A DNA stretch of 64,000 nucleotides from NCBI GenBank assembly GCA_009784975.1, contig WQXG01000004.1:19761-83760 (forward strand). Direction: 5' to 3'. The position numbers and the translations under genes were made by a program. The notes beneath the pieces are model-generated. The model was not told where the DNA came from. It saw only the letters and a program-made list of their open reading frames with translations, and made no database searches. The number at the start of each line of letters is the position of its first letter. Position 1 is the first letter of the stretch. The DNA is from Treponema sp. GTDB lineage: Bacteria > Spirochaetota > Spirochaetia > Treponematales > Breznakiellaceae. This document shows, in pieces, positions 12,771 through 60,954 of this stretch.

Positions 12771-12804
12771 AACAAGGTATTATAAAAATATTAAGGAGTA
12801 AAAT

Positions 12805-39844: not shown

Positions 39845-40858
39845 ATGGGAAAATTTAATTTAAGTTCAATCGAAGATTATGTAGCAAATCACTTAAGGAT
39901 GTTTATCCTTTCAGTTGCAGGGCTGGTAATTTTTGTAGGTATAATTGCGGTATCTGTTTTTTTTATTGCAGTTCACGGCGAGGAACAGACAATGGTTCCC
40001 GATGTCGTTGGCAAGGAATTAACTTCCGCCCTTATGGAATTGCAGGTAAAGGAATTATATCCCCGCCTTCAGCTTCGCTATTCGCAGACTTCCAGAGATA
40101 AGGGGATAATTCTTGAACAGGAACCAAAACCCGGAACCATCGTAAAAGCGGGGCGCCGTATCCGTCTTGTCGTAAGCCAGGGTGTTATTTTAAACAAGGT
40201 TGAGAATTTTGTCACCCGTAACATTGATGAAGTACGGATGGAAATACACGCGATCAATGCGGCATCTGGCGGTCCTCCTCTGCTTTCCATAAAAGAACCC
40301 ATAATGTACGAATTTTCATCAGAAAATCCCGGCGTAATTCTTGAACAAAAACCCGTAAGCGGAACTGATATTTCAGGACCCACATCTTTGGAATTTGTTG
40401 TCAGCAGGGGAAGAGAAAACCGAATGGTAACAGTACCTCAATTATCCGGATTATCAATGTCTGCCGCGCTTACATTAATTTCTTCAAGCGGAATTAACTT
40501 CAGGTTTACCGCGAGAGAAAGAAGCGGTAATGAAAGAGGCGAAACCATTGTGGAGCAAACGCCTGCCGCAAATACATCTGTTTCTATTAATACTCCGGTT
40601 CAGCTAACTGTTACCAATCCTCCAAGTTTGGCAAGCAGTGAAGTTTTTGGAATTTTTTCGTATACAATACCGCAGAATCCCTACCCGTTAATTGTGCGCC
40701 TTGAAACGCAGCTTCCTTCGGGAGAGCGAAGGCTGCTCTTTACCGCAAATTTCCCGGGCGGATTATTTACCGTTCCGTACAGGGTGCCGTCGGGAAGCCT
40801 GCTTATTTTGTCTATGCTTAACCGCGAGCTATACCGCGAAACGGTAGAAAGGAATTAA
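39845..40858 (+). CDS. membrane-anchored PASTA-domain protein with no kinase or PBP domain
   Basis: 337 aa. One N-terminal TM segment, then PASTA-like repeats (VPDVVGKELTSALMELQ...; VTVPQLSGLSMSAALTLI...). Confidence 0.7.
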   Translation: MGKFNLSSIEDYVANHLRMFILSVAGLVIFVGIIAVSVFFIAVHGEEQTMVPDVVGKELTSALMELQVKELYPRLQLRYSQTSRDKGIILEQEPKPGTIVKAGRRIRLVVSQGVILNKVENFVTRNIDEVRMEIHAINAASGGPPLLSIKEPIMYEFSSENPGVILEQKPVSGTDISGPTSLEFVVSRGRENRMVTVPQLSGLSMSAALTLISSSGINFRFTARERSGNERGETIVEQTPAANTSVSINTPVQLTVTNPPSLASSEVFGIFSYTIPQNPYPLIVRLETQLPSGERRLLFTANFPGGLFTVPYRVPSGSLLILSMLNRELYRETVERN

Positions 40859-42519
40859 GATTCCTCTTCTATACGAATACCGGAAACATAAATACTGCCG
40901 CCGTTGCTTAAAACGATTATTGCTATAAATGCTTTTGCCAGATTATCGAATCCCGGGGTGATGGCTAAATCCCGCACATTCAGATAAGTAACAGCGGTTG
41001 CTCTTGTTCCCCGCGCGGAAACAAGCGGTTCAATCAGCAGCTGGGAAGCGGTACCCATTATGGATTGCGCCGCGTTTGCATTGTTATTGTTCACCATTAT
41101 CCACATGTCACGGCTGGCAGGAGCGCTCCAGATAATTTCGTAATCAACAGAAATGCGTATATTTTTATCCGGGGTTAATAAATCAAATACTCCGTCACGA
41201 TGGACATCAGTATCGGTATTGTCATGTATATTGCTGCCAATCATTATTCTGGTACTGTTATGCGAATTAGCGCTGTCAGCACTGCCGTATCGCGGAAATG
41301 CCACCGGATCAGGATTGTTCCCCGATACATTATTTGATGAGTTAAGCAAAAGACCGGATGCCGTATATGGAATAAAATTTCCTTTTACTTTAACGGGCAT
41401 ACCTTCTGCATATTCTCCTCTTCCATACATTTTGTAGTTAACAGCCGATTCATACGAACTAAGCGTAGGACGCGGAGTAAGCGCCGGAAGCTCGGATGTC
41501 GGAGGATTGGGCGGCGTTATATCCAGATTTAAATGCCCGTCGCGCGCGCGATCCCATGCCCATATCGGCAAGGCTTGAGTTTTTACAAGTACAGATGCGT
41601 TTACAGAATTATCGCTGTAATGCGCCGTTACGCGCACAACTGCGGGAGGATCCTTAAAATTGCTTATAGATATGCCTTTTAGAGCGCAAATTTTTCCATT
41701 CGGTTCAATCTGCACCTCTGAAACATTGCCTGTTGTCCATGTAATAGATAAAGGCGTGCCTCCTGCATAGTCCGCTTCTATCTGCACGATGTCATTCGGA
41801 TACAGCCATATAATATTAGTTACAGGCAGTTTCTTTCCTTCACGATCTTCATTTGCAAAATTAATCCGTATTCCCCTGATTGTTATATCCGCAGCTTCTG
41901 TTATCTGCATATTAAAAGTTTTTGAAAAGCCGTTAATAGACGCGGTTATTGTTACATCGCCCTCTATAAGTCCTTTAACAATGCAGCTTCTGCTGCCTGC
42001 AATAGGAACTAGCTCAACCATATCTTGCGGGCTTTGGCTCCACGTTAAATTTCCTGCTGCCCAAAGCGGAATTAGCTCTGCGCTTAAAATCTGCTCTTCG
42101 CCAACTTCAATTTTGGGCAAACCTAAAATATTGTTTACCCCCTCTGCCTGAGCAGCCGCATAAATAAAAACAGAAATTGTTTTTGATACTAACCCGCCTG
42201 TATTGGATTTCCATGCCTTTACCGTAATTGAAACACTTCCTGAAGTATTAATGTTTTCCCCTCTTACGGTACATTCACTCCCAACTCCCGCACTTGTTAT
42301 AACAGCATCGCTTCCTGTAATTTCCCAAATAATTGAAACATTTCCTGCATTTTCTGTCTGTGCTCTTAAAGTAATTTCCTGCCCTTTTTGAACGGCTACA
42401 AAGGAACCCCTCTCCTGATCATCAAGATAAATTCTAACGCTGCCAGGCGATGTATTATCAAATTCAGGGCATCCTGTTAAAGCGAACACAATTACAAAGG
42501 ATAGCAGGATTTTTATCAT
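40855..42519 (-). CDS. surface lipoprotein: three Ig-like (Big_2-type) domains plus the uncharacterised C-terminal module
   Basis: ORF 40855..42555. The start MIKILLSFVIVFALTGC (lipobox) at 42519 overlaps the upstream stop by 4 nt. Ig-like segments include ITVKAWK and VTITASING. The C-terminal module (nt 40858-41571) ends IYVSGIRIEEES. Confidence 0.7.
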   Translation of the reverse strand: MIKILLSFVIVFALTGCPEFDNTSPGSVRIYLDDQERGSFVAVQKGQEITLRAQTENAGNVSIIWEITGSDAVITSAGVGSECTVRGENINTSGSVSITVKAWKSNTGGLVSKTISVFIYAAAQAEGVNNILGLPKIEVGEEQILSAELIPLWAAGNLTWSQSPQDMVELVPIAGSRSCIVKGLIEGDVTITASINGFSKTFNMQITEAADITIRGIRINFANEDREGKKLPVTNIIWLYPNDIVQIEADYAGGTPLSITWTTGNVSEVQIEPNGKICALKGISISNFKDPPAVVRVTAHYSDNSVNASVLVKTQALPIWAWDRARDGHLNLDITPPNPPTSELPALTPRPTLSSYESAVNYKMYGRGEYAEGMPVKVKGNFIPYTASGLLLNSSNNVSGNNPDPVAFPRYGSADSANSHNSTRIMIGSNIHDNTDTDVHRDGVFDLLTPDKNIRISVDYEIIWSAPASRDMWIMVNNNNANAAQSIMGTASQLLIEPLVSARGTRATAVTYLNVRDLAITPGFDNLAKAFIAIIVLSNGGSIYVSGIRIEEES

Positions 42520-42875
42520 CTTAGCCCCTTTGTAATAAACTTTACCTGCGCCCAAATTGCAGGATTAACAGCAGAAACAACTTTTATTACAGCTTCCTTA
42601 TTAGCGGTTCTTCCGGTACGAACAACACCTGCGCTGTCAACTTCTATAAATTCAGGATTATCACTGCTCCATTCAACAATATGCCCGGAAGGAACAATTG
42701 CATACAACCGCTGCACCCTGTTTGTAACAATTTCTATTTCCCTGTCATTTAAAATTTCTCTGCCTGAATAGATAACAATCCCGTCCGCCGATAAATCTGC
42801 ATCAGCATCCGGCTTAAGATCGCAGGCTCCAAGAATAATTAAAGTTAAAACCAAAATAAATACTTTTTTTATCAT
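42516..42875 (-). CDS. small lipoprotein with a single Ig-like (Big_2-type) domain
   Basis: ORF 42516..42908. Likely start MIKKVFILVLTLIILGAC (lipobox). Big_2-like segment EWSSDNPEFIEVDSAGVVRTG...AVIKVVS. Confidence 0.65.
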   Translation of the reverse strand: MIKKVFILVLTLIILGACDLKPDADADLSADGIVIYSGREILNDREIEIVTNRVQRLYAIVPSGHIVEWSSDNPEFIEVDSAGVVRTGRTANKEAVIKVVSAVNPAIWAQVKFITKGLR

Positions 42876-42888
42876 AAAAGTTTCTCTC

Positions 42889-44292
42889 TTAAAAAGAATA
42901 TTCAACATACAAAGGTATGGTGAGCACTGCTTTTTCCTGCATTCCGTTTACAGTCCCTGCAAATCTATATCCAATTCCGCCTTTAACATAACAATTATTA
43001 ATAATAGTTTTTTGAATGGATAAACCTGCGCCTATTCTGTAACCTCCGCTAAGAGCGGCAGGAGTTCCGCTGCCGATAATATTTCCGTTATTGTCATAAG
43101 AAATGCCAATCCATTCAAAACCAAAGTTTAATATTAATCTGCCAAAAGAAAATTCCCAGGAAGGCCATATATGCAGATTCAATTCCGGAGCAAAATAAAC
43201 TCCTGTAACATGACCTTTTAAACTGCCTCCGAATTTTGCATCCAAACGCCCTGCGATTTCAAATGCGTCATATTTATAACGCGCTCCCAATGCAACATGA
43301 TACGGTGCCTGCCAGACTAGCCCTGATTTATAGGCTCTGTAAACAGGATCAAGCAGGCTTTCATCAATTTTTTCAAATATATCAGGCGGGCTTTCTTCCC
43401 AATTCTTAAATGGTATCGGTATTTTGCCGCCAACATCTATCGTTAAACCGGAGATTCCTGTAAATGCAAAAGCTGCTTCTACCCGCGCGGATGTTATATT
43501 AAAAACCGGAATCGCATAAGAAGCAAGTTCTGTCACTGTTTCATTTATAATTTCATCGGTTACTATATTAATGCCTACATGAGGTTTAGCGCCAAAATAC
43601 TGCACGCGCACTGTTCCAACATTTGGAATTGTGTATGCCGCCGCAACCTGAATACGGTGCCAAACCTCTGCGTTTTGCGTAATTAAATCAGGACTGGAAT
43701 TATACACAGTACCGGGCGCGCTTGCATTGGCAAACGGCATCAGATCGTATAACATGGCGCCGAAAAAAAGATTCTCTTTTGGAGTAATACTGAGCATTAA
43801 ACCTGCCTGCCCGTTCCAGTGCGTTCTAAAGCGCGTAAAAATTCCGTCCGCATCGTACATACGGACAGTGTAGGCATGCATTCTTTCATCCTGATCATTT
43901 ATCTGCCCGCGCAGACGGTCGTTTAAAAAACGGCCGGCATCAATCTGCATCCATGGAAAAGGTCTCCACCATGCCTGCAAATAATCTTCTATCGCAACTC
44001 CGTCTGTTCTTGCCTGAATGCGCGTTCTCATCCCAATAATATTTTCATAGGATGCGCGCAAATCAAGGCGTGCCCGAATTCCCTGGCTTGAAGCATTGCG
44101 CCCTGCGCCTGCACCCATTATAACAGCTTCTTTTTCAGGTCCGCCGAAATATGACGGCTCTGTATCTTCATTTAATATAAGCTGAAACGGAATAATCGCC
44201 ATATCCACAGATGTTCCGATTGTAATTTCCGCAAAACACGGGGCTGCAATTATTAAAAATGCTGTCAGATACAGCGTCAGTATTTTTTTCAT
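42889..44292 (-). CDS. predicted outer-membrane beta-barrel protein
   Basis: 467 aa. Signal peptide MKKILTLYLTAFLIIAAPCFA. Many amphipathic strand-like segments (RARLDLRASY, AGLMLSITP, VRVQYFGAK, RVEAAFAFTG, GARYKYDAFEIAGRLDAKFG, GYRIGAGLSIQ). The C-terminus is ...PLYVEYSF. Confidence 0.6.
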   Translation of the reverse strand: MKKILTLYLTAFLIIAAPCFAEITIGTSVDMAIIPFQLILNEDTEPSYFGGPEKEAVIMGAGAGRNASSQGIRARLDLRASYENIIGMRTRIQARTDGVAIEDYLQAWWRPFPWMQIDAGRFLNDRLRGQINDQDERMHAYTVRMYDADGIFTRFRTHWNGQAGLMLSITPKENLFFGAMLYDLMPFANASAPGTVYNSSPDLITQNAEVWHRIQVAAAYTIPNVGTVRVQYFGAKPHVGINIVTDEIINETVTELASYAIPVFNITSARVEAAFAFTGISGLTIDVGGKIPIPFKNWEESPPDIFEKIDESLLDPVYRAYKSGLVWQAPYHVALGARYKYDAFEIAGRLDAKFGGSLKGHVTGVYFAPELNLHIWPSWEFSFGRLILNFGFEWIGISYDNNGNIIGSGTPAALSGGYRIGAGLSIQKTIINNCYVKGGIGYRFAGTVNGMQEKAVLTIPLYVEYSF

Positions 44293-44303
44293 ATCATGCT
44301 CCT

Positions 44304-45680
44304 TTAACGTATCAGTTTATCCATTTCAAAATCTGCAAACAGAACAGCCATTTCGCGTTCTCCTCTTTCATTTTTTTCTTCGCCCAAAAAAGTTAACACA
44401 GGGTTAGCCGGGTCAGGCAATCCAAAAGGTGTCATGTGCAATATACGCCGGTAAACGCCGAACTTGGGACGAATGTAACTGTTAAACGGACGGTACATCA
44501 CAAAAGGATCCGGCTCATTGTATATTGCGGGTGAATAGGTATATTCCATTAATACTTTCATGTCCCTTATACGAACAAGTTTAATGCTGAAAGTACCAGG
44601 ATTATCATAGGTGACGGTTTCTTGCGCGAAAATCCATTCGCCTTTAAAAGGCGCAAGGTCTACTTCGGCAGGATACCAGTTTACACTTGGGTCTCCGTTG
44701 GGACGAATCGGTCCGCGGTAAATTAGCTGCAGCACTTCCCTTCCCGTCCGTAATCTGCGGCCTGTCAAAGTAAAGGTGGGGTTTCCCGAATCTCCGCCTT
44801 CCGGTTTTAACTGATGAATATGCGTAAATTCACTTGATACCCTAAAATCATCCGGCAGGCGGAATTTCCATCTGTGCGTAAATGTATCGCCGTTTCCTCT
44901 TGAATGCATATCGGGATTATCATGCTGGCCATCCATGGTTTTTATTTCCATTCTTTGCCGGTCATCATAACCTCCCACCATGTCACCGTCCAGCTCATGA
45001 TGCATAATAAATCTAAAAACTTCCCTGTGCAAACGAAAAGCTTCTTCCGGCAAATATTCCCAATCTTTTACCTGAACAACATGCGGCACACCTTCATGTA
45101 ATTTACGCAGTTCGGTTTCCAGATAATTATCGCCGTGTATGGTATCTTCGAACGAAACAAGATTTGTCTGGCGGGCGGATAATCCGTCCGGCGCTTCATA
45201 ATGAAACCCCCTATCCCTTATAAGCCGGTAGGATGTCTGCCCGCGCGCATTGTAGGGAACGGCAAAATCTTCATTATAAACATTCATGTTTGCGGATAAA
45301 ATATTGCGGCTAACGTCCGCTGCTTTCCAGTTACGGACAAACACACGAAGCTCGCCGGATCTTTGCGCGGATTCAAATTTTACGATACCCATAACTCCTG
45401 CTTTTCCGGATATTTCAAAATCGGAACCGTTTTTTACAACCTGAATCGAAGGAGAGCCGGATGAAAATGCCGCATCGGTAATTTTAGTGTCAGATAAAAA
45501 ATAATCGTTATAAAGGGAAACAGTTATTGTTTCATCGGGATCGATTACCAAAACATGCAGAAGCGGAGCATAAATTTTTGTTTCTCTTATTTCCAGGCGG
45601 GGGCTTTCCGTTTCCGGCGCATCAGGCTGCAGGCAGGAAGAAAGAAAAATCAATAATATAACATAAAATATTTTAATCAT
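44304..45680 (-). CDS. lipoprotein with an N-terminal Ig-like domain and a concanavalin-like / polysaccharide-lyase-like (PF14099-type) domain
   Basis: 458 aa. Lipobox LLIFLSSC. The core QRMEIKT...GDTFTHRWKFRLPDDFRVSSEFTHIHQLKPEGGDSGNPTFTLTGR...LQLIY resembles the heparin-lyase-I/glucuronan-lyase-like Polysacc_lyase family. This is from memory of the family pattern, with no search run. Confidence 0.45.
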   Translation of the reverse strand: MIKIFYVILLIFLSSCLQPDAPETESPRLEIRETKIYAPLLHVLVIDPDETITVSLYNDYFLSDTKITDAAFSSGSPSIQVVKNGSDFEISGKAGVMGIVKFESAQRSGELRVFVRNWKAADVSRNILSANMNVYNEDFAVPYNARGQTSYRLIRDRGFHYEAPDGLSARQTNLVSFEDTIHGDNYLETELRKLHEGVPHVVQVKDWEYLPEEAFRLHREVFRFIMHHELDGDMVGGYDDRQRMEIKTMDGQHDNPDMHSRGNGDTFTHRWKFRLPDDFRVSSEFTHIHQLKPEGGDSGNPTFTLTGRRLRTGREVLQLIYRGPIRPNGDPSVNWYPAEVDLAPFKGEWIFAQETVTYDNPGTFSIKLVRIRDMKVLMEYTYSPAIYNEPDPFVMYRPFNSYIRPKFGVYRRILHMTPFGLPDPANPVLTFLGEEKNERGEREMAVLFADFEMDKLIR

Positions 45681-45692
45681 TAAAAACTCCCG

Positions 45693-46730
45693 TTAATCCG
45701 CGCTTTCTATTCGTATACCGCGAAGCAGAATCTTGCCCTGCGGCAATGCCAAACAAACAAAGGAACGTGACAGTACTGCGTCTTTTTTTTCGGCATCAGT
45801 GCTTCCCGGAATATCATCTTTTTTTGACGTTGAAAGCGCGGAAAGCGAGTTATCAAATATTCCTGTTAAAATTCCTGTACTCGCGCTTGATTGCGTTAAC
45901 TCCGTAACAAAAGAATTGTTAATTGCCGAAGCATTACGCTGCAGAGTATTGTTGTTTACCTGAATACGCAAAAACGAATCCGCATCCAGCATTTCGTATT
46001 CAACAGAAACGCGCACCCTTCCTGCCCATAGCTCATATCCTTGGGGTCCGTTTAAAAAATCAAATTGCCCGTTTTTATCATAAACCGGATGATCCTCAAA
46101 AGGCGAATTTGTCGCCGTTGCCATTCCGGAGCCGATTAAAAGCTTCGCCCCTGCTCCTTCCAGCACTATCCCGCCGCGTTTCATATCGCTGTAAATTTCC
46201 GTATCTCCTGTGCGAATCAACATTGGAAAACCTGCATCATAAATGTAGTAATTTGTCTGCGCTTCCAATACAGGATTTTCCATCCAGTCGGCATACAGAT
46301 AATTCCATTTAAAAAATGTTTTTGGAATCACATTGATGATACATTCCGCCCCAACAACAATTTCGTTTAAAGTATTCCGCGCGGTAACAAAGATTATAGT
46401 CTTGCCGCCGTTTTTGGCTGTGACAGTAATTTCCTGCCCGGAAAAACCGCTTAATTCCAAAATACTACCATTGCTGCTTTGCCAATGCACTCCGCCCTGC
46501 ACTCCCGCCGGCTCCAGCATAACCCCCAGAATTCCTGACCTTCCTTCGATGAGAGTTATACCCAACACAGGAACCGGATTTTTATTGAATAAAATTGAAA
46601 CACCGTCTACAGGAGATTGAAGATAATTATTTTCCGTTGCCAAACCTTCGGTTTGAGGGCAGCCAAGCATCAGAAGCCCTAAAACTGCGCAAAAAGCCAT
46701 TGTTTTTCTGCCCGAAAAATAATTTAACAT
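45693..46730 (-). CDS. lipoprotein: one Ig-like (Big_2-type) domain plus the uncharacterised C-terminal module
   Basis: 345 aa. The lipobox LLMLGC can be reached from either Met, at 46730 or 46700; promoter geometry favours 46700. Big_2-like segment ITVTAKNGGKTIIFVTA. The module (nt 45696-46319) ends ILLRGIRIESAD. Confidence 0.7.
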   Translation of the reverse strand: MLNYFSGRKTMAFCAVLGLLMLGCPQTEGLATENNYLQSPVDGVSILFNKNPVPVLGITLIEGRSGILGVMLEPAGVQGGVHWQSSNGSILELSGFSGQEITVTAKNGGKTIIFVTARNTLNEIVVGAECIINVIPKTFFKWNYLYADWMENPVLEAQTNYYIYDAGFPMLIRTGDTEIYSDMKRGGIVLEGAGAKLLIGSGMATATNSPFEDHPVYDKNGQFDFLNGPQGYELWAGRVRVSVEYEMLDADSFLRIQVNNNTLQRNASAINNSFVTELTQSSASTGILTGIFDNSLSALSTSKKDDIPGSTDAEKKDAVLSRSFVCLALPQGKILLRGIRIESAD

Positions 46731-46735
46731 AGTTT

Positions 46736-46786
46736 ATTTTACAACAGACTAATTTTCTTGACAACAGGCAATATGGGGGTTATATT
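46736..46786. promoter_or_regulatory. back-to-back divergent sigma70-type promoters sharing an overlapping -35 region
   Basis: Plus strand: TTGACA at 46758-63, a 17-nt spacer, TATATT at 46781-86. Minus strand: TTGTCA as the complement of 46759-64, a 17-nt spacer, TAAAAT as the complement of 46736-41. Confidence 0.55.
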
Positions 46787-46824
46787 TTGATAAACAAGCA
46801 AATAATTCTTTTTTGGAGGGAGTT

Positions 46825-49800
46825 ATGAGAAAGATGGGAATAATACTGATATCTTTAGTTTTAATTTTTACCGGATGTATTGATGAACCGAACGGAAACA
46901 GCATAGAGCCTGTTATTAATGGAATTACATACGGATTTAATGAAGTACCTGTAACCGAAGACGGACTGGTAGAAATCGGCTATCGTAAAGAAGTATTATT
47001 TTCCGCTAACGCAGAAAACGCAACAATATTTTCATGGACTGCGGATGTTCCGGGCAGAGTAACAATAACTCCAAATAACAGCACTACAGCAATGATCAAG
47101 GGAATTGCCGGAGGAGATGTTAGAATAACATTTACCGCTTCTGACGGAACTTCAAGCGCTGTTTTTGAATTTACGATACAGGTTGAACACAGACCTGCAG
47201 AAGGCTTATGGCTGGATGTGATTCATGAAAACGATTTTGTAACAGAAAACCAGGAATTCATCATAAACGAAAAAGATTCCGAAGGTTTAACTTTTATAGC
47301 CGATGCGGCTGAAGATAATGCCGATGTATCAGATGCCGTTACCTGGACAGCGGAACCATCCGGCATAGTTACACTTAGCGTTACTTCCGGCAGCACGGTA
47401 ATAATTACACCGCGTGAAGCAGGAGAAGTTATTATTACAGTAAAAATCACATCTGTTATTTTCGATGACGAAGAATTATCATTTAAAATAATCGTAGAAG
47501 AAGAAAGCTTTGAAAATGTTTTATTCCTGTGGCGCGCATCAGATTACACCGGTTCAATACCAAATATAACAAGCGGCGGCTCAGCACCATCTTTTACCCA
47601 TACCAATTTTGAAAAATTCATGGAACAAAAAGACGGCATGGTAATAAAATCCATGCGCGGTTTTGGCAGCACTGTTACCACCAATGCGAAAGGACTTGCA
47701 TTAGGTTCCGATTCAAGCAATGCGCGGCTTGCCATTGGACAATATGCCAATGAGGGCACTGCGGCAGGTTCCGGCGGCAATCCTCCCGCTCATTCACCGC
47801 AAATGGATCCAATCCCGGATTACGGCGGCGAAATTGATCTTTACCGTAAAAAAGTACGCCTTACCATAGAGTACGCCGATGCCAGCACAATTGCAGGCGG
47901 TTACCTCTTACGCATTTATATCGGCAACAACGGAACAGGCGAAGCAAACTCAATTTTTGGAGCAGCAAGCAATCTTGTATCTTACGGCACAGATCCTCAT
48001 TTTGGAGCCACAGGCACATGGCTGGAAATACTGGATGCATCTGAAGGCAACACCTTAAGCGCAGGAAAAATAATTTTTGAAATTGACACAACAACAGAAA
48101 CCTTCACCTCTCTTGCAAACGAAAGATATCTTGCAAAAACATTTATCGCCCTGCACTGCCAGTCAGGCGGCACCAATAACTACGACGGCAAAATTACAAT
48201 AACAAGCATAAAGCTTGAATACATCGACGGCGAAGAAACACCGGATGTGCTTGCACTGGAAGTAAAAGAAGAAGGCACGGTTGTGCCGTCTGCGGGTATT
48301 ACGATAATTGGACCGGAAGAAAAAAACATTTCTGCGAACGTTACTCCTGTTGCTGATAGTATTACATGGGTAATAACAAATACAGATATTGCTACTGTAC
48401 ATCCAGCTTCAGGACAAAATGTAACAATTGCCGCCGGAACTGAAACCGGTACAACCTCTATCACTGTAACAGCGATTAAAGACGGATATTTTTCTGCAGC
48501 CAGAACATTTAATATTACTGTGCAGAATGTACCAATTGAATTAAGCGTAAAACAGGAAGACGATCCTGTAGGCGCATCAATTCAAATGAAAGAAGGAGAC
48601 CCGTCAATAACTCTTAGCGCAGAAGCAAATCCCAGCACTACTATAAACTGGGAAAGCGATAAACCTGAATTTGTAACAGTTACACCTCTGAACGGCGGAA
48701 CTTCTGCAACCATTACTGCAGAAGCTCCAGGGACAGCAACAATCACCGTTAGCGCTGAACTTGCAGGTTATGAATCTGCACAGAAAATTTTTACTGTTGC
48801 AGTAATTCCGGCAGACGGCGATCCCAATCTTATTTGGGAATGGAATTATGGAACTAACAATGGAGCAAAGGGTACATTTACATCTGCAAGTGATAACGCA
48901 TATCTTGTCGGCAAAGGAGTTCATCCAAAAGCAACAGTTATGCCAATCAGGCTTCAATCCGGCGCAATTGAAAACGATGACACTAAAGGCGGGATCAGAA
49001 TAAACGCATCATCAACTACAGGCATACTTTCAATAGGCACTTCTTCCAACACAGGTTCATTGACTGATTCTTCGCCTGCCGGAGAATTTAATTTTAAAGA
49101 CTTAATAAAAGATTCCGGAAAAATAAAAATAACCATTGCCTGCGAATTTGAAACAGCAGGTCAGGGTAATCGCGCTTTTATTGTCCAGCTTAACAATAAT
49201 ACCAGTGGTGGTACTAATTCGCCATTTGGACAGGCTCCCAGCAGGATTTTCTATTGGCAAAATACTCCGGGCGGCGCTGCTGCTCCAAGCAACTGGAACA
49301 GCGCAGAGGGCTTGGCTGAATGTGTTCAAATTGACAAAAGTTTAACAGACACAAACAATTACCTGGATAAAGTTTTTATTGGCATTGTCGCATTGGGATT
49401 AAATGCCGGAAACGCAGGCTGTACAGTTCTAATTAAAGGCATCAAGATCGAATATGTTCCTGAAGTACCAAGTGATGTTATTTTTGAATGGGATTATAAT
49501 GAAGATGGGTGGACTAATTTAGCTGCAAATGCCAATGGTTCACATGATAGCAAAAATATCAGAGCGGGAGGACAAGATCTTAATAGCCATGCAACAGAAG
49601 ACGGCGTAATCCTGAATGAAGGCGGTAGGTTTATAATCGGCGGCTCTACTACCAGTGTACCGACAACATCTACAACTGTAACTGACACAGGAGGACAGTT
49701 TAATTTTAGCTCTGCTATCACAGCAGGAAGAACGATAAAGATATCTATCGACTATAAGGTTTTAAACAACACTGGCAGCCAATCAAATAAATTTCTAAGA

Positions 49801-50076
49801 ATTCAAGTAAATAATAATACTACTACTAATAATGCTTCTGTACTAAATAATTGGGAAGTAGCAAGAGGTCAAATAGATTCTGGCAGTTTTCCTCAAGAGG
49901 GCACTCTTTCAGGAATATTTAATCCTGGAAGTGCTACTCTAACTACAGCAGCATTAGAATTACCAACTCCATTGGATTTGCAAACAGTACTATCACAATC
50001 ATTAATTGCCATAACCTTACCAGGTAACAGCGGTTCTGTACTCATTAAAAGTGTTAAAATAGAATATACAGATTAA
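46825..50076 (+). CDS. giant surface lipoprotein: Ig-like (Big_2-type) domains interleaved with three copies of the uncharacterised module
   Basis: ORF 46813..50076. ATG at 46825 follows GGAGGGA. Lipobox LIFTGC. Big_2-like segments include VRITFTASDG, ITVTAIKDGY and TITVSAELAGY. The modules end ITITSIKLEYID, VLIKGIKIEYVP and VLIKSVKIEYTD. Confidence 0.8.
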   Translation: MRKMGIILISLVLIFTGCIDEPNGNSIEPVINGITYGFNEVPVTEDGLVEIGYRKEVLFSANAENATIFSWTADVPGRVTITPNNSTTAMIKGIAGGDVRITFTASDGTSSAVFEFTIQVEHRPAEGLWLDVIHENDFVTENQEFIINEKDSEGLTFIADAAEDNADVSDAVTWTAEPSGIVTLSVTSGSTVIITPREAGEVIITVKITSVIFDDEELSFKIIVEEESFENVLFLWRASDYTGSIPNITSGGSAPSFTHTNFEKFMEQKDGMVIKSMRGFGSTVTTNAKGLALGSDSSNARLAIGQYANEGTAAGSGGNPPAHSPQMDPIPDYGGEIDLYRKKVRLTIEYADASTIAGGYLLRIYIGNNGTGEANSIFGAASNLVSYGTDPHFGATGTWLEILDASEGNTLSAGKIIFEIDTTTETFTSLANERYLAKTFIALHCQSGGTNNYDGKITITSIKLEYIDGEETPDVLALEVKEEGTVVPSAGITIIGPEEKNISANVTPVADSITWVITNTDIATVHPASGQNVTIAAGTETGTTSITVTAIKDGYFSAARTFNITVQNVPIELSVKQEDDPVGASIQMKEGDPSITLSAEANPSTTINWESDKPEFVTVTPLNGGTSATITAEAPGTATITVSAELAGYESAQKIFTVAVIPADGDPNLIWEWNYGTNNGAKGTFTSASDNAYLVGKGVHPKATVMPIRLQSGAIENDDTKGGIRINASSTTGILSIGTSSNTGSLTDSSPAGEFNFKDLIKDSGKIKITIACEFETAGQGNRAFIVQLNNNTSGGTNSPFGQAPSRIFYWQNTPGGAAAPSNWNSAEGLAECVQIDKSLTDTNNYLDKVFIGIVALGLNAGNAGCTVLIKGIKIEYVPEVPSDVIFEWDYNEDGWTNLAANANGSHDSKNIRAGGQDLNSHATEDGVILNEGGRFIIGGSTTSVPTTSTTVTDTGGQFNFSSAITAGRTIKISIDYKVLNNTGSQSNKFLRIQVNNNTTTNNASVLNNWEVARGQIDSGSFPQEGTLSGIFNPGSATLTTAALELPTPLDLQTVLSQSLIAITLPGNSGSVLIKSVKIEYTD

Positions 50077-50199
50077 CAACAAACCACCCGTAATCTTGTT
50101 GTAGGGCGCGGCGGGGATACGAACAGGGAAAACATCTTCGGCCGTTAAAAGGCGGGCTCTTTGCCGAAGTTTTCCCTGATCGCAGCCCCGCCGCGCCCG
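50076..50199 (+). other. two consecutive stem-loops, the second an extended GC-rich hairpin of about 95 nt
   Basis: First hairpin: ACAACAA-N13-TTGTTGT at 50076-50102. Second hairpin: GGGCGCGGCGGGG (50105-50117) pairs with CCCCGCCGCGCCC (50187-50199). It encloses CAGGGAAAAC/GTTTTCCCTG and CTTCGGC/GCCGAAG. It lies between the stop of the giant lipoprotein gene and mgtC. Confidence 0.6.
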
Positions 50200-52408: not shown

Positions 52409-54178
52409 GTGGATGGAATAGCGATTTTAGCGCCGGAAGAAGCAAGGCGTATTGCAGCGGGAGAGGTGATCGATCGCCCCGCGGCTCTTGTCAGGGAATT
52501 CCTTGATAATGCGATAGATGCAAAAGCAGCAAACATTGATATAACTCTGGAAGAAGGCGGGTGCAAAAAAACAGAATGTTCCGACGACGGCGCCGGCATG
52601 AGCCGCAAAGATTTGGAATTATGCTGGCATACTCATGCTACCAGTAAAATCCGCGCTCTTGCGGATTTGGACACTGCTCTTACTCTTGGTTTTCGCGGGG
52701 AAGCGCTTGCCGCCGCTTCTGCTGTTTCGCGCATTGAAATAATTACCAGCACAGACGGCAGAGAGGCATGGCAGCTTGAAACCGGACCCGGCGGCAGCAG
52801 CCCTGTCAAACTGGAACAAACACGGCGTACAAAGGGCACTACCATAAGAGCACTTAATCTTTTTGAAAGCATTCCTGCGCGCAAACGATTTTTAAAAAGG
52901 GAAGGAAGCGAAGCGGTTCTTTGCAGGCAGGCTTTCATTGACAAGGCATTGGCATTTAACGCAATCAATTTCCGTTTTATTCAGGACGGCAAACTAAAAG
53001 ATTTTCTGCCTGCGGTATCTTCAAAAAAAGAACGTTTTGCCGCCGCTACAGGGCATCAAAATTTTCTGCACGAAATAAATGTTACAGGAGACGGTTTTTC
53101 CGCCGTGATAGTTTTGGGCGGCCCTGAACTGTACCGCAATGACAGAAGACAGTTATTTGTTTTTGCCAACGGCAGAAGAGTGCATGATTTCTCGCTGATT
53201 CAGGCGATGGAATACGGCTCTCAGGGATGGTTCCCCAACGGCACTCATCCTGTAGGAGCAGTTTATGTTGAGGTAGATCCGTCTCTTGCGGATTTTAATA
53301 TTCACCCGGCAAAACGCGAAGTGCGTTTCCGTGACCCGGGAACGATCCACCATGCTGTCTCAGGGGCTGTGAAGAGTTTTTTTCATAATTTGTATCTTGG
53401 AAGAGTTGGCAAAGACTCTCGCAGAGACGCAGAGGCGCAGAGGACGCAGAGGGAAGAGGGGGAAGAGGTTGGAAGAGACTCTCGCAGACCGCAAACCGAA
53501 GGTTTGAAGGAGGCGCAGAGGACGCGGAGGGAAGAGGGGGAAGAAGGGGGAGAATTTAAATTTTCTTATGACTCTGCGATCTCTGCGTCTCTGCGGCTCC
53601 GCGAGAGTTTTTCCCAGTGCCTCTGCGAGAGTTCTTCCCAGTTTCCTGTGTATGCGGGGAGGGTGTTTGGGGTTTTTATTTTGATTGAGTGGGGGGATAA
53701 GCTCTACATTATCGATCAGCATGCGGCGCATGAACGTATTCTTTACGACAGGTTTTTAAAAGAGCCGATTCCCAAACAGGAATTGCTTGCGCCCATTCCT
53801 TTCTGTACAGATAGTGATGATGAGGATGCGTTTTTGGAAAAAAAGCGCGAAGAATTATCGCGGCTTGGGATTGATATCGAAAAAGATGAAACCGGCTGGC
53901 GTATCGATGCGCTTCCTTCGGATTGGCGGTTGGGCGATGCGGCAACCGTAAAGGAAATCCTTGAATTGCGGACAGCAGGGGAAAACATGGCGGAGCGCTG
54001 GGCTGCAACGATGTGCTGCCGGGCGGCAATTAAAGACGGTGATTACCCGGATGATGAAACTGCACTTGCTCTTGGCAAGGAGGCGCTTGCCCTGAAAGAC
54101 CCGCGCTGCCCTCACGGCCGTCCTGTCTGGACAGAGATTAGCAAGGAAGCGCTTTACAAAGCTGTCAGAAGGGATTGA
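52409..54178 (+). CDS. mutL: DNA mismatch repair endonuclease MutL
   Basis: GTG start directly after the xseB stop. N-terminal GHKL ATPase motifs IAAGEVIDRPAALVREFLDNAIDA and LGFRGEAL. C-terminal endonuclease motif DQHAAHERILYDRF. Confidence 0.92.
   Translation: MDGIAILAPEEARRIAAGEVIDRPAALVREFLDNAIDAKAANIDITLEEGGCKKTECSDDGAGMSRKDLELCWHTHATSKIRALADLDTALTLGFRGEALAAASAVSRIEIITSTDGREAWQLETGPGGSSPVKLEQTRRTKGTTIRALNLFESIPARKRFLKREGSEAVLCRQAFIDKALAFNAINFRFIQDGKLKDFLPAVSSKKERFAAATGHQNFLHEINVTGDGFSAVIVLGGPELYRNDRRQLFVFANGRRVHDFSLIQAMEYGSQGWFPNGTHPVGAVYVEVDPSLADFNIHPAKREVRFRDPGTIHHAVSGAVKSFFHNLYLGRVGKDSRRDAEAQRTQREEGEEVGRDSRRPQTEGLKEAQRTRREEGEEGGEFKFSYDSAISASLRLRESFSQCLCESSSQFPVYAGRVFGVFILIEWGDKLYIIDQHAAHERILYDRFLKEPIPKQELLAPIPFCTDSDDEDAFLEKKREELSRLGIDIEKDETGWRIDALPSDWRLGDAATVKEILELRTAGENMAERWAATMCCRAAIKDGDYPDDETALALGKEALALKDPRCPHGRPVWTEISKEALYKAVRRD
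53399..53640 (+). repeat. in-frame block of direct and inverted short repeats (CGCAGAG / CTCTGCG units plus a 33-nt direct repeat) in the mutL linker
   Basis: CGCAGAG occurs four times at 53420-53451 with 8, 8 and 9 nt spacing. A 33-nt direct repeat, GGCGCAGAGGACGC(A/G)GAGGGAAGAGGGGGAAGA, occurs at 53434-53466 and 53512-53544 (32 of 33 identical). The reverse-complement units CTCTGCG are at 53572, 53581, 53589, 53597 (variant) and 53621. Confidence 0.85.
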
Positions 54179-56467: not shown

Positions 56468-57022
56468 ATGGGAAGCTTCAAAAATGAAAGATATTCAGAT
56501 GTATCCCCGGCAGAAAAATTTCTTGTGCTTGTTCCTCATCGGGATACCCGTGTTGAACTGCAAAAATACAGCGAAATGCTTCTTAAATCCGGGCTTAAAA
56601 ATGTATATAAATTTCCTCAAGCTGCTCCTCTGGCTGCCCTTTCAAAGCCGCTAACATCAAATGAGTTAAAAAACATTGCCCGTTCGCTAAGGGAAGCCGC
56701 CTTAATACGCGGCATTAGCGGTGAAATGTTTCATACTAAAGAATTGTCAACCGTAACATTTCCGGATAAACCGCTATTCGGCCCCCGTCTGGATTTGGGC
56801 ACACGGGAGCTCTCCATAAACTTTAAAACAGAAAAGATTATTTCTCTTTTTTCTCCGGCTATAATTGGTTTATTTTTAAATTGCAGCGGGGTCAGCGCAG
56901 AGCCGCATAAACTGTCTTTCCGCGCCGCCGCTGTTGCCAATATGTACTGGAAACCTGTTAAATCCGGCTATAAATGGAAAATCGGGAAATTACACTGGCT
57001 GCCAAAAACCATTACTTATTAA
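56468..57022 (+). CDS. hypothetical protein
   Basis: 184-aa ORF, divergent from the previous gene. No family recognised. Confidence 0.5.
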   Translation: MGSFKNERYSDVSPAEKFLVLVPHRDTRVELQKYSEMLLKSGLKNVYKFPQAAPLAALSKPLTSNELKNIARSLREAALIRGISGEMFHTKELSTVTFPDKPLFGPRLDLGTRELSINFKTEKIISLFSPAIIGLFLNCSGVSAEPHKLSFRAAAVANMYWKPVKSGYKWKIGKLHWLPKTITY

Positions 57023-58919
57023 AAAGACTTACAAGCCATGTGCTAAGCCACGGCAGATATGTTACCAAAAGCACAACTATAAGGCGCACAAGCAGGAATG
57101 GGGAAACATATTTGCAAATCTCCATAAACGGCTTCTGGAAACGGTACGATGAAAGAAACAGGTTAAGCCCTACAGGCGGAGTAATATACCCTACTTCAAG
57201 GTTAACAAGGAAGATAATTCCCAAATGCACCGGGTCTATGCCGTAAATCTCTCCCAGCGGAATAATAAGGGGGAGCACAACAAGGATGGCGGAAAACATA
57301 TCCAATACAAAACCAATAACAAGAAGAGCGGCATTAAGAAGCAGCAGGAAAACCCATTTGGAAGAAACAACAGTATGCATCCAGGAGGCAACATTGGCAG
57401 GCGCCTGGGTATCTATGATGTAATAAGAAAACGCGTTTGCCAGAGCAAGAATGGATAATACGCCGCCTATAATGGGAATGGCGCTGTCAAATATTCTTTT
57501 AATATCAGAGAATTTAATATCTTTATGTATAAAAACTTCTACAATAAAAATATATAAAACAGCAACTGCCCCAAGCTGGACAAGATCAAGAACGCCGGTA
57601 AAATAACCAATAATTAAAAGTATTGGCAGTAAAATCTCCAGGCTTGATTCTTTTAAGGCAGCAAGCGCCTTGCGCAGTTCAAATTTTTCTACAGGGATTT
57701 TTACTTTAAGCGATATAACAATGCCGAATACTATCATTGCAATAACAAGAAGAACACCGGGAATTATTCCGCCCAAAAATAAATGAAGAATATTAACCTG
57801 AAGAACCGTTCCAACCAGAATCAAAGGAAGACTGGGCGGAAAAAGCAAACCTATGCTTCCCACAGAGGTTAAAAGCCCAATTGAAAATTTGGAAGGATAT
57901 TTTAAATGTTCGCTGAGTATCGCATACAGGATGCCGCCAAGGGCAAGAATTGTAACCCCGGATGCTCCCGTAAAAGATGTAAAAAATGCGCAGATTACTA
58001 CAGAAACAATTATAATCCCACCGGGAATCCAGCTAAACAAACTGCGGAAAGTATTTACAAGCCTCTGCCCCGCTTTGCTTTCTGAAAGGAAAAATCCAAC
58101 TATTGTAAAAAGCGGAATCGCGATAATATTCTGGCTGATAAGACCAAAATAAATTTTATTCGGAACAGTATCCATCTGCCCGCCGGAAGCCAAAAGCAGA
58201 AGAAGCGAAAGACCGCCCAAAACAACAAATAAAGGCGTTCCTCCAAGGGCTGCTACGAGCAGGAAAACTACAAGCGGTATCTTTGCATAATAAGCAATAT
58301 CTTCAAACAGAATGCATAAATCAAAAATAGCATCGGGCATATCAAAGCCCCAGATTATTTTAACGATAACCGGAAAAGAAGCAACTGTTCCCAAAACAAG
58401 AGCAAGTACAGGTAACAAAATCTTCCAGCCTGTCAGCCTTGTCCTGCGCGCAAAACGAATAGCCATAACTCCAAAAGCGATAGGTATTATCAGAGCAAGA
58501 ACACGCTTTGAAGCAAAGCCAATCATGCTTCCGTCAAGCCCCATTTTTATAAAGGAGATGGAGCTCCATGCGATTACAATACAAATAAACGCAGAAACCA
58601 GATTACAAAAAACTTTTAATCTTTCTCTGATTGGACCTTCGGGAAGATACTGCACGACTGAAATAGCCAGATGCGTTTCTTTTCTGGTACAGATCATCCC
58701 GCCTGCAAGAGCTGTAAACAATAAAAAGTGTACAATGAATCCGGAAGAAGCCGGTATCCCTGTCCTGAACAGAAAAAATACCAGCAATTCCAATAAAGGA
58801 AAAACAGCCATTAAAACCAAAACGGCTATACAAAAATAATCTTCAATTAAATATAGAACAGACCTAACCCGGCCAATCAATGATTGGTCGGGCTTTTCCT
58901 GTATTGATTGTGTTTCCAC
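57012..58919 (-). CDS. TRAP transporter fused small/large permease (DctQ-DctM fusion; TatQ-M-like)
   Basis: 635 aa with about 16-17 TM segments. The N-terminal DctQ-like part is fused to a DctM-like part. It is the last gene of the tatT-dctP-dctQM operon. Confidence 0.85.
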   Translation of the reverse strand: METQSIQEKPDQSLIGRVRSVLYLIEDYFCIAVLVLMAVFPLLELLVFFLFRTGIPASSGFIVHFLLFTALAGGMICTRKETHLAISVVQYLPEGPIRERLKVFCNLVSAFICIVIAWSSISFIKMGLDGSMIGFASKRVLALIIPIAFGVMAIRFARRTRLTGWKILLPVLALVLGTVASFPVIVKIIWGFDMPDAIFDLCILFEDIAYYAKIPLVVFLLVAALGGTPLFVVLGGLSLLLLLASGGQMDTVPNKIYFGLISQNIIAIPLFTIVGFFLSESKAGQRLVNTFRSLFSWIPGGIIIVSVVICAFFTSFTGASGVTILALGGILYAILSEHLKYPSKFSIGLLTSVGSIGLLFPPSLPLILVGTVLQVNILHLFLGGIIPGVLLVIAMIVFGIVISLKVKIPVEKFELRKALAALKESSLEILLPILLIIGYFTGVLDLVQLGAVAVLYIFIVEVFIHKDIKFSDIKRIFDSAIPIIGGVLSILALANAFSYYIIDTQAPANVASWMHTVVSSKWVFLLLLNAALLVIGFVLDMFSAILVVLPLIIPLGEIYGIDPVHLGIIFLVNLEVGYITPPVGLNLFLSSYRFQKPFMEICKYVSPFLLVRLIVVLLVTYLPWLSTWLVSLFNK

Positions 58920-58922
58920 GTA

Positions 58923-59951
58923 CTAACGTCCCCTTCGGTATTCTGTTAAAATATCTTTTACTTTTAAATAATACTCTCTGTTAAAAGTAGGATTTGCTCC
59001 GCCAATAAGCCTGTTTTCATATGAGTTGGTATCATCAAACCAAACTTGCTGCTGCGCAGGAGTCAATGTATTTATTTTAAGACCATGCCTTACCATTGTA
59101 GAAATTGCTTCTGTTTCCAAGCCTGCGATTGACGCTTCTATATCTCTTTCCATGCGCTTGGTTGCTTCCAGGAGCTCGGGTTTAAACCTGTCCGGAATTC
59201 TGCGCCAGGTTACTTCGTTCATTAAAATGCCGCCCATAAACGGAGCAACATTGATGCTTGACATATTGGAAGCAATGCCGAAAAGCTGATTTGCCGCTAC
59301 GAAAATAGGGCTGGAGTAAACGGCATCTGCTCTGCCGCTTTGCAGTGAAAACAATAATTCGTTAACATTTGCCGGAACAATCTGATAACTTAAAAGCCTG
59401 AAAGCCTGAATCATCTGCTGATCATCAGAACCTGTGGCAAGCCTTAATCTGCGTAAATCATCCGGAGTTACGATAGGCGATCTTGTAAATATTTTTATCC
59501 ATCCGGCGCGCGCCCAGGCAAGATTAACAAAACCGTTTCTTTGAATTCTTTCATTCAGATCCGATTTAACTTTGCCCAGCACTTCATCCAGTTCGTCATC
59601 ATTCCTGATTAGAAACGGAAAACTTACAGCCATTAATTCCGGCACTACGGAATTCAATCCCATGCTGGTAAAAACGCCCGCCTGTATCTGGTTGCTTCTT
59701 ACCAAAGCCATAACCTGCGATTCATCGCCTGCGGTTCCGCCGTGGAACACAGTCACATTGAGCAAACCGTTTGTTATCCGCGCCCAATCCGCCGCCATGC
59801 GATTAATTGCCTGTCCCCATGCGGTATTTTCCGGAGCAAGCGACGCCAATTTAATGTTCATTGTTCTTTGCGCAAAAACCGGATTCAAAACCAAAAACAA
59901 CAACAATAAAATAAAAATGAATTGAAGTTTTTGTCTGCTAAAAATTTTCAT
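58923..59951 (-). CDS. TRAP transporter substrate-binding protein (DctP family; TatP-like)
   Basis: ORF 58923..60029. ATG at 59951 follows AGGAGA. Signal peptide MKIFSRQKLQFIFILLLLFLVLNPVFA. DctP-like core NIKLASLAPENTAWG. Confidence 0.85.
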   Translation of the reverse strand: MKIFSRQKLQFIFILLLLFLVLNPVFAQRTMNIKLASLAPENTAWGQAINRMAADWARITNGLLNVTVFHGGTAGDESQVMALVRSNQIQAGVFTSMGLNSVVPELMAVSFPFLIRNDDELDEVLGKVKSDLNERIQRNGFVNLAWARAGWIKIFTRSPIVTPDDLRRLRLATGSDDQQMIQAFRLLSYQIVPANVNELLFSLQSGRADAVYSSPIFVAANQLFGIASNMSSINVAPFMGGILMNEVTWRRIPDRFKPELLEATKRMERDIEASIAGLETEAISTMVRHGLKINTLTPAQQQVWFDDTNSYENRLIGGANPTFNREYYLKVKDILTEYRRGR

Positions 59952-59994
59952 AAAAATCTCCTCTCTTGTTAATTTGAGTCTGTTTTCAGACATT

Positions 59995-60954
59995 TTACCA
60001 ATCATCATCCCAGTCATCCCAATCATCACCTGAATCGAAAAGGATAAAAAGCTGAGATGCTGAAGCCAGCAAATAACGCGCTTTCCGCTGGGAGATAATA
60101 TTTACCAGACGGTTTGAAGGATCATCATCTATGTCTATCGCAAGTGCGTTGTCTAACATTTCTTTAAATTTGGGGTAATCCTGAGCAGGTATGCAAACTG
60201 CCTGTGCATAAGCTACATAAGTCCCTGCGGATTTTCCCCCGGATTTTTCAAGCGCCCTTTGGTAATGGGTTTCCACTTTTGAAAAATCACCGCCCATTCC
60301 ATCAGGAATTGACGCATGGAATAACAATAAAAATTCATCCAAAGCGCCGGAATTAAAATCAGGATCCAGTTCATAAGCGCGTTCCACAAGAGCGTAGAAT
60401 TCCAATATACGCATCCCTAAATCCAAATCGAAAGGATTAAGAGAAAATGCGGAAAGCCCGGCAGCCGCAGACCAGTAAAGCGCAGGCACATCGGCTTTTT
60501 TCATCTGTGCCAGTATTTCCGGCAAATTACCTTCATAGTAGGCATTGGAAAAACCGGGATATTTTAATTCCAGTCCGCGGTAAAGCAATTCCAGCCCCCT
60601 AAGGTACAGTTTCTTTGCGCGATCCAATGCATCCTGACGCTCCTGAAATCTTGCAATAGGAAGCATTTCCGCCGGTCCCTGAACAAAAGCATTTGCATAC
60701 ATAACAAACATGGAGCCGGTTGTATTAATCAGCCCCTGATGGTTTGTATTCTGCGAAAGCAAAGCTTCGTACATTTTGATGGCAAAAGGAATCGCGTCCC
60801 CAACCAATTGGGGATCAGAATCTCCCGTGAAGACATCAGAGCTGCCTTCACCCGTTAGCGCGTTGGCTATCATATTCATTGCCAACTGGTTGATTGAACA
60901 AGCCGAAAAGCAACAAATAGTTAAAATTGTTATAAAAGTAATTATCTTTCTCAT
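59995..60954 (-). CDS. tatT: TatT-like TPR lipoprotein of TPR-protein-associated TRAP transporters (TPATs)
   Basis: 319 aa. Lipobox CCFSAC. Helical TPR-like repeats. Its position immediately upstream of dctP and dctQM is as in Treponema pallidum tp0956-tp0958. The C-terminus is DSGDDWDDWDDDW. Confidence 0.7.
   Translation of the reverse strand: MRKIITFITILTICCFSACSINQLAMNMIANALTGEGSSDVFTGDSDPQLVGDAIPFAIKMYEALLSQNTNHQGLINTTGSMFVMYANAFVQGPAEMLPIARFQERQDALDRAKKLYLRGLELLYRGLELKYPGFSNAYYEGNLPEILAQMKKADVPALYWSAAAGLSAFSLNPFDLDLGMRILEFYALVERAYELDPDFNSGALDEFLLLFHASIPDGMGGDFSKVETHYQRALEKSGGKSAGTYVAYAQAVCIPAQDYPKFKEMLDNALAIDIDDDPSNRLVNIISQRKARYLLASASQLFILFDSGDDWDDWDDDW

Follow-up and report, generated by a model that had tools for sequence, protein, structure and literature searches.

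SusE and SusF of the polysaccharide utilisation loci (PULs) of Bacteroidota are lipoproteins in which N-terminal immunoglobulin (Ig)-like domains are followed by one to three beta-sandwich modules, and they are encoded near an outer-membrane protein and a degradative enzyme. Here we describe an arrangement reminiscent of this organization in a 64,000-nucleotide stretch of DNA from Treponema sp. (GenBank assembly GCA_009784975.1, contig WQXG01000004.1, positions 19,761 to 83,760; referred to as the window, with position 1 being its first nucleotide), where three lipoproteins encoded in a cassette of six genes carry five diverged copies of a module of about 210 residues (range 200 to 240). Like SusE and SusF, the window lipoproteins possess a lipobox, Big_2 domains at the N-terminus and between modules, and modules at the C-terminus; their genes are located beside those for a putative outer-membrane protein and a degradative enzyme, and a dedicated regulator is encoded nearby in related loci. 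In contrast to SusE and SusF, the host is a spirochaete and the partner is a 467-aa protein of unassigned family. No Pfam match to a TonB-dependent receptor, SusD, SusE or SusF was found in any cassette protein, and the cassette thus contains neither a recognizable SusC/SusD pair nor detectable SusE/SusF homologs.

The second group of described proteins to which the module can be compared are the carbohydrate-binding modules (CBMs) with a jelly-roll fold, in particular CBM27 (TmCBM27, 1OF3), CBM22 (4XUO, 4XUP) and CBM11 (6R3M, 2LRO). Like the module, these are all-beta sandwiches occurring singly or in tandem, and some are appended to carbohydrate-active enzymes, as is the case for the module in one family member (P0108). 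All three families are among the top Foldseek matches of the module (probability 0.92-1.00), but template modelling (TM) scores reach only 0.35-0.5 at a root-mean-square deviation (rmsd) of 8-10 Å. In addition, the module is somewhat larger (200-240 residues versus 150-175 in the matched chains), shows no sequence similarity to Pfam CBM models or PDB chains, and occurs mostly in non-enzymatic lipoproteins. The best reading of our data is that the module is a beta-jelly-roll domain that folds autonomously, has no catalytic function and founds a new CBM-like family, so far found only in uncultured Treponema and Spirochaetaceae. We assign a probability of roughly 55% to the more specific proposal that this CBM-like family, borne on Ig-stalked lipoproteins, captures a polysaccharide containing uronic acid, to be used by the neighbouring lyase and an outer-membrane channel.

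Five diverged copies of an old module

Three copies of the module, all detected with a profile hidden Markov model (HMM) and BLASTP, are located in a giant lipoprotein encoded on the plus strand: G1 (nt 47515 to 48228; residues 235-472), G2 (nt 48826 to 49461; residues 672-883) and the C-terminal copy G3 (nt 49474 to 50073; residues 888-1087), which was used for structure prediction with AlphaFold2 (model mf55b10eed6db). The other two copies form the C-termini of lipoproteins encoded on the minus strand, namely gene E (nt 45696 to 46319; residues 138-345), with orthologues that are 46-60% identical, and gene A (nt 40858 to 41571; residues 329-566), with orthologous modules that are 43-48% identical. 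A preliminary description of the window had recognized these five copies by short landmark peptides, and all five stretches indeed translate to the peptides quoted there. When the database copy of the giant protein was searched with a second HMM, built independently from family alignment A2, envelopes were obtained at nt 47515-48228, 48826-49461 and 49474-50073, which agree with the earlier coordinates within 3 nt (the envelope of G2 ends 3 nt further downstream). One of the landmarks, the strand consensus (V/I)R(L/I)(T/S)(I/V)(E/D)Y, holds exactly for G1 and A only, the corresponding stretches being IKITIACEF in G2, IKISIDY in G3 and VRVSVEY in E.

The preliminary description had proposed to abandon the family if pairwise alignments of the copies lacked statistical significance. 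BLASTP links every pair, with the strongest similarity between G3 and E (33% identity, E-value 1.6e-24) and E-values of 3e-7 to 1e-2 for the remaining pairs. HMMs built from four copies recovered the respective fifth copy among the 713 six-frame open reading frames (ORFs) of the window with E-values between 2e-10 and 2e-18 (G1, 6.7e-12; G2, 1.4e-12; G3, 1.6e-18; E, 3.8e-18; A, 2.2e-10). Shuffled controls (200 per copy) scored 7.7 bits or less compared to 36-63 bits for the real copies, which rules out a compositional artefact of Asn/Thr/Ser-rich sequence. Searching the six-frame translation of the entire 64-kb window with the HMM of all five copies returned these five places only.

No direct DNA repeat was found between any two copies (seed 11, minimum length 20). 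Moreover, the closest relative of each window copy is a module in the protein of another organism (38-60% identity), while identity among the window copies does not exceed 36%; for G1, this relative is the first module of a protein designated P0047 (54% identity). The cross-organism best matches are mostly found at the equivalent position of the protein; in the case of G3, several best matches reside in different architectures. The window copies are thus nearer to modules of other organisms than to each other, which indicates that the duplications are older than the divergence of these lineages. A recent duplication or DNA repeat is therefore ruled out, and the family is old and maintained, as had been proposed from the sequence of the window.

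The Asn-rich stretch of the module, its C-terminal position and its occurrence in Treponema also led us to consider it as the target of a diversity-generating retroelement. This was rejected, as the NNN motif is conserved to approximately 90% across the family and not variable. No template/variable repeat pair is present in the region from nt 40800 to 50100, and no reverse transcriptase turned up in Pfam scans of most window ORFs of at least 150 aa.

Predicted fold and conserved residues

Searches of the six cassette proteins against Pfam-A (2025 copy) and NCBIfam (r20) revealed no model covering the module even at E-values of up to 1, all matches being of the Big_2 type and located outside the modules. 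A PDB sequence search with a profile of 21 modules recovered no matching chain (best E-value 1.4). The module, which had been described as uncharacterised, is thus not covered by the models of these two libraries, and sequence searches of Pfam-A, NCBIfam and PDB did not place it in any existing CBM family. The giant protein is named 'hypothetical protein FWD26_01855 [Treponema sp.]' at NCBI (MCL2804667.1).

AlphaFold2, provided with the 21-sequence alignment A2, predicts G3 to be compact and all-beta, with about 13 strands (mean predicted local distance difference test score (pLDDT) 81.9; predicted TM score (pTM) 0.83), and the low-confidence parts of this model coincide with loops of varying length among the copies. 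The CAZy definition of a CBM calls for a contiguous sequence with a discrete autonomous fold; judging from these model scores and from its recurrence as a unit of 200-240 residues, the module is predicted to have such a fold. Foldseek comparison of the model with PDB returned remote matches only (best E-value 1.9e-4, TM 0.3-0.5, rmsd 8-11 Å). All of them are jelly rolls, including Eph ligand-binding domains, a putative glycoside hydrolase of Bacteroides (4JRL), CBM27, CBM22, CBM11, legume lectins, the Hc part of botulinum neurotoxin (BoNT Hc) and Cry domain III, with probabilities of 0.9-1.0 for the top matches; an alginate lyase (7C8F) is also included in the list. In a viral structure library, phage tail-fibre accessory, LamG and CenC-like domains were matched. 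ConA-like lectins and receptor-binding jelly rolls (5U38/3ZYR, Eph 3NRU, BoNT Hc) have the general jelly-roll topology that is predicted for the module and are among its top Foldseek matches (E-values 2e-4 to 7e-3), but they are remote (TM 0.3-0.48, 8-13% identity), and there is no Pfam match to Lectin_legB, Laminin_G or Ephrin_lbd in the module. The beta-sandwich suggested in the preliminary description is therefore in agreement with the predicted structure, whose neighbours are jelly-roll CBMs, lectins and receptor-binding domains. The model points to the jelly-roll fold class as the probable one for the module, within which no particular structural family is supported.

A C-terminal sorting domain was considered as well. 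Such domains, e.g. that of the type IX secretion system (T9SS CTD, PF18962), are single-copy, strictly C-terminal and about 80 residues long; this candidate was rejected in view of the internal and tandem copies G1 and G2, the length of 200-240 residues, and the absence of a PF18962 match.

Conservation was analyzed for 153 full-length modules (residue numbers refer to G3). The conserved positions are W6 (98%), G57 (100%), G74 (93%), L173 (95%), F177 (88%), I194 (90%), E197 (94%), the asparagines N113-N115 (about 90% each), D/N77, T/S91, Y94 and S122. The polar cluster formed by D/N77, N113-N115 and E197 may represent a structural metal site. Subfamily-specific tryptophans in loops (in DGW and NNW) are invariant or nearly so in 14 orthologues of the E type and common to G3.

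The jelly-roll fold class is shared by many lyases and hydrolases, the alginate lyase 7C8F and the putative glycoside hydrolase 4JRL appear among the structural matches, and members of the family are found in lyase loci. One might thus suspect that the module itself is a catalytic jelly-roll domain belonging to an unrecognised polysaccharide lyase or glycoside hydrolase family. We consider this improbable, because neither a lyase-like set of Arg, Lys, His, Gln or Tyr residues nor a hydrolase-like acid pair is conserved in the 153 modules, which is evidence against catalysis by the module, and because repetition in tandem and attachment to an entire lyase, as in P0108, are what one would expect of an accessory module. 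The lyases of the PF14099 type (PL20, 2ZZJ; PL13 heparinase I) and of family PL7, to which the neighbouring lyase of the cassette belongs, have the fold class in common with the module, but the module is unrelated to them and does not contain the stretches R-x-E, H-x-x-Q and K-x-G-x-Y that are invariant in the neighbouring lyase. With a profile-profile (hhalign) probability of 0.1% against the neighbouring lyase family, the possibility that the module is a degenerate copy of that lyase domain was discarded.

Distribution and architecture of the family

A word-indexed search retrieved 26 relatives, none with Pfam annotation, and all named ones originate from Treponema or Spirochaetaceae metagenome-assembled genomes (MAGs). 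An exhaustive profile search of 1.84 billion cluster representatives yielded 231 proteins at an E-value of 1e-3 or below, 111 of which are at 1e-10 or below; each named family member that was looked up stems from a Treponema sp. MAG. The isolate names of the source MAGs are reminiscent of those of termite-gut MAGs, and literature searches by accession or sample code returned nothing on the habitat. The top 144 members contain 193 modules, with one to three modules per protein. A lipobox-like signal is present in 93 of these 144, many of the others being fragments, and in 121 the last module ends no more than 12 residues from the C-terminus.

Among 66 more distant members, the partner Pfam families are mainly Big_2 (15 members), Flg_new_2 (5) and PKD (3). 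A GDSL esterase domain, heparinase II/III domains (DUF4962, Hepar_II_III_C, HepII_C) and CHB_HEX_C are found in single members. The heparinase-type member is P0108, in which the module (residues 52-274) is followed by a complete heparinase II/III-type lyase composed of the three domains mentioned; in another protein (P0080), the module occurs together with an F5/8 type C domain. Occurrence within carbohydrate-active enzymes is thus limited to a few members (P0108, the GDSL esterase and the CHB_HEX_C protein), and the majority, including the products of the three window genes, possess only Ig-like domains. The C-terminal regions of P0092 and of a 720-aa protein encoded in a related locus (L010) gave no PDB or Pfam match.

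A 2569-aa protein (P0167, encoded at nt 330-8039 of locus L011) shows only a partial module-like match in six stretches (E-value 2e-8), the best of which corresponds to profile positions 65-159. We read its context as phage-like, with a gene for an HU-type DNA-binding protein and several small genes whose matches to HNH and SNase are weak in the neighbourhood. One possibility is a structural protein of a phage whose sandwich is distantly related to the module, another is false membership of the family.

In the libraries and literature searched, we found no description of the sequence family, its restriction to uncultured treponemes or the SusC/D-less cassette; the fold class and the functional logic are already known.

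The six-gene cassette

The cassette consists of the giant lipoprotein gene and, divergently transcribed from it, gene E, a lyase gene, the gene for the putative outer-membrane protein, a small lipoprotein gene and gene A. The giant gene (nt 46813 to 50076, plus strand) encodes a protein with the lipobox FTGC, Ig-like domains, G1, two Big_2 domains, G2 and G3. Its likely true start is the ATG at nt 46825, which gives 1083 aa as in MCL2804667.1, compared to 1087 aa when counted from the TTG and 1080 aa in the JGI call. The lipoprotein encoded by gene E (nt 45693 to 46730, minus strand) has the lipobox MLGC and combines a single Big_2-like domain with a single module. The start chosen in ENA and Logan assemblies gives 325 aa and would drop the signal peptide and the lipobox. 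The small lipoprotein gene (nt 42516 to 42908, minus strand; lipobox LGAC) shows a weak Big_2 match, and the product of gene A (nt 40855 to 42555, minus strand; called start 42519, 554 aa) is a lipoprotein that has the lipobox LTGC, Ig-like repeats and a single module at its C-terminus. Lipoboxes are thus present in five cassette proteins, i.e. in all but the putative outer-membrane protein, and the minus-strand genes are separated by 11-12 nt or overlap.

Gene E and the giant gene are separated by 82 nt, within which two sigma-70-like promoter matches are arranged back to back (plus strand, nt 46758-46786, 11 of 12 matches; minus strand, nt 46764-46736, 10 of 12 matches). They are the two best matches between nt 40500 and 50400, where the total number of such sites is no higher than in shuffled sequences. 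Their position suggests a shared divergent control region for gene E and the giant gene.

The product of the lyase gene (nt 44304 to 45680, minus strand) is a lipoprotein of 458 aa (lipobox LSSC), whose catalytic domain is a beta-jelly roll of the PF14099/PL20/PL7 type. NCBI lists a protein of 100% identity under the name 'polysaccharide lyase [Treponema sp.]'. For the C-terminal half, homologues (E-values 1e-21 to 1e-38) are found in Bacteroidota, many of them with PF14099. The AlphaFold2 model of the lyase (pLDDT 86.4) is most similar to the PL20 glucuronan lyase 2ZZJ (Foldseek E-value 4.6e-8, TM 0.56 on the target), with lyases of PL7 (acting on alginate or glucuronan) and heparinase I of PL13 next in the list. 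Three stretches are invariant, RQRMEIK, HIHQLK and KFGVYRR, and we take these to resemble the PL7 motifs R-x-E-L-R, Q-I-H and Y-F-K-A-G-V-Y.

The 467-aa protein (nt 42889 to 44292, minus strand) has a signal peptide and ends in ...IPLYVEYSF, a C-terminus that resembles those of outer-membrane barrels in its alternation of hydrophobic residues and its final Phe. It is thus a putative outer-membrane beta-barrel protein that might function as a channel. All of its 54 relatives are from Treponema or Spirochaetaceae MAGs, none has a Pfam domain, and PDB searches with the single sequence as well as with a 21-sequence profile revealed nothing significant; a weak match to 2ZZJ (E-value 0.036) was treated as chance.

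The presence of one outer-membrane-protein gene together with three module lipoproteins in each cassette raises the question whether the module serves for docking or assembly between proteins, tethering the lipoproteins to the outer-membrane protein or to each other, rather than for glycan binding. Its usual location at the very C-terminus (121 of 144) would be in line with such a role, as would the most conserved residues (NNN, E197, D/N77, W6), which form a fixed, patch-like set in all copies regardless of the subfamily. However, these residues are predicted by the model to lie mostly in core strands, and up to three tandem copies with hypervariable loops correspond to the pattern of binding modules rather than to a single docking site. 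In addition, the module is also fused to a lyase (P0108), and two related loci (L009 and L010) encode other putative outer-membrane proteins but no homologue of the 467-aa protein. Taken together, we regard a docking function as unlikely.

Related loci and genomic context

The order of the six cassette genes recurs in three MAG loci (L001, L002 and L007) at protein identities of 30-60%. The scan for related loci used patterns specific to E-type proteins, and genomes are undersampled as a consequence. L007 contains two lyase paralogues inside the cassette, and an additional PF14099 lyase is encoded upstream of the cassette in L002. A gene for a member of GH88, the unsaturated glucuronyl hydrolase family, abuts the cassette in L001 and L007, and a gene for an IclR-type regulator does so in L002 and L007. 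In a second locus type, represented by L010, a heparinase II/III lyase that is itself a lipoprotein is encoded together with four lipoproteins bearing the module and with a pair of ~550-aa paralogues that possess signal peptides; L009 is similar. Lyases are thus found beside modules in both locus types, and the association between module and polysaccharide lyase spans them. The pairs of ~550-aa paralogues (L010, nt 8235-11587; L009, nt 6292-9666) share N-termini of the form ...AQFNW..L..D.NTGL..W..PTGE. and have no Pfam match; they may constitute a second, unrelated family of outer-membrane components.

In the window, a GH88 gene is located at nt 3180 to 4301 (minus strand), and its product is 55-61% identical to the cassette-flanking GH88 proteins of L001 and L007. 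It lies in a sugar-utilisation cluster (nt 1309-8062) that also comprises genes for two ABC permeases (nt 1309-3223, minus strand), a GH36 alpha-galactosidase (nt 4236-6686, plus strand) and an MFS_2 transporter (nt 6689-8062, plus strand).

These loci also bear on another conceivable function, according to which the module would be a lectin-type adhesin mediating attachment to plant fibre, to glycans of the gut wall or of protist surfaces, or to other bacteria, and would not serve substrate capture for a lyase. The lectin-like jelly-roll fold predicted for the module, the long stalks of Ig domains in the lipoproteins, the large and diversified paralogous family within a single clade and the absence of enzyme domains from most members would all be compatible with adhesion. 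However, the tight, operon-like linkage with genes for lyases, GH88 and IclR in at least four independent loci of two types points to nutrient acquisition, which is likewise favoured by the lyase fusion in P0108. We thus give adhesion as the actual role of the module little credence.

A possible role in polysaccharide capture

Carbohydrate binding by the module is supported circumstantially by its fusions to a heparinase II/III lyase, an F5/8 type C domain and a GDSL esterase and by its clustering with genes for lyases, GH88 and IclR. If it is a CBM-like capture domain, the following scenario is conceivable. The lipoproteins would be displayed at the cell surface, where Big_2 and other Ig-like domains would separate and extend the module copies. 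The modules would bind a uronic-acid-containing polysaccharide via the variable loops of the sandwich, and the five diverged copies would provide avidity and perhaps different sub-specificities. The captured chain would be cut by the lyase, the outer-membrane protein would let in the resulting unsaturated oligosaccharides, and GH88 and transporters encoded elsewhere in the window would complete breakdown and uptake.

Several points weigh against this scenario. Surface exposure of lipoproteins is not a given in Treponema, and glycan binding by the module is something that we infer. The predicted structure of the module resembles solved CBMs only weakly (TM 0.3-0.5, rmsd 8-11 Å) and backs no specific CBM family. 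Most members of the family are not enzymes, and the classical hallmark of a CBM, i.e. occurrence within a carbohydrate-active enzyme, is seen in few of them only. In addition, the putative outer-membrane protein is without a detectable relative of known function at the sequence level, the GH88 gene of the window is located about 37 kb away from the cassette, and no IclR gene adjoins the cassette here.

Other features of the window

The mutL gene (nt 52409-54178, plus strand) contains a repeat-rich segment of about 235 nt (nt 53405-53640) in the region encoding the MutL linker. This segment comprises inverted arms of 45 nt (nt 53407-53451 and 53572-53616; 84% complementary) and a direct repeat of 42 nt (nt 53432-53473 and 53510-53551; 90% identical), which is translated in frame as AQRTQREEGEE and AQRTRREEGEE. 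Its appearance is that of a small element that was inserted or expanded and is tolerated in a disordered linker. A chemotaxis cluster (nt 9063-13281) encodes CheA (nt 9063-11432), a CheW-CheR fusion (nt 11433-12770) and CheX (nt 12805-13281). A tripartite ATP-independent periplasmic (TRAP) transporter is encoded at nt 57012-60954 by genes for a fused DctQ-DctM protein (nt 57012-58919), a DctP solute-binding protein (nt 58923-60029) and a TAtT T-component (nt 59995-60954), all on the minus strand.

Conclusions

Should the module prove to bind glycans, a new CBM family would be defined by it. With lyase and GH88 as partners, the hypothesis of a uronic-acid substrate can be put to a direct test with recombinant proteins. 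In the case of glycan binding, the HMM would provide a handle for locating the polysaccharide-utilisation loci of spirochaetes, to which the SusC/D markers of Bacteroidota cannot be applied, and a function could be proposed for more than 200 clusters of Treponema proteins currently termed 'hypothetical' or 'Ig-like domain-containing'; uronic-acid polysaccharides would be indicated as a substrate class of these bacteria. More broadly, and with somewhat less than an even chance of being correct, uncultured treponemes might own a surface harvesting machinery analogous to PULs that is assembled from unrelated parts. Its components would be glycan-binding jelly-roll modules that are restricted to spirochaetes and carried by Ig-stalked lipoproteins, outer-membrane channels of a new family in the place of SusC/D, and lyases of the jelly-roll or heparinase type. 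Such a machinery would be aimed at uronic-acid polymers, for example glucuronans, with the five modules reading different features of one complex substrate.

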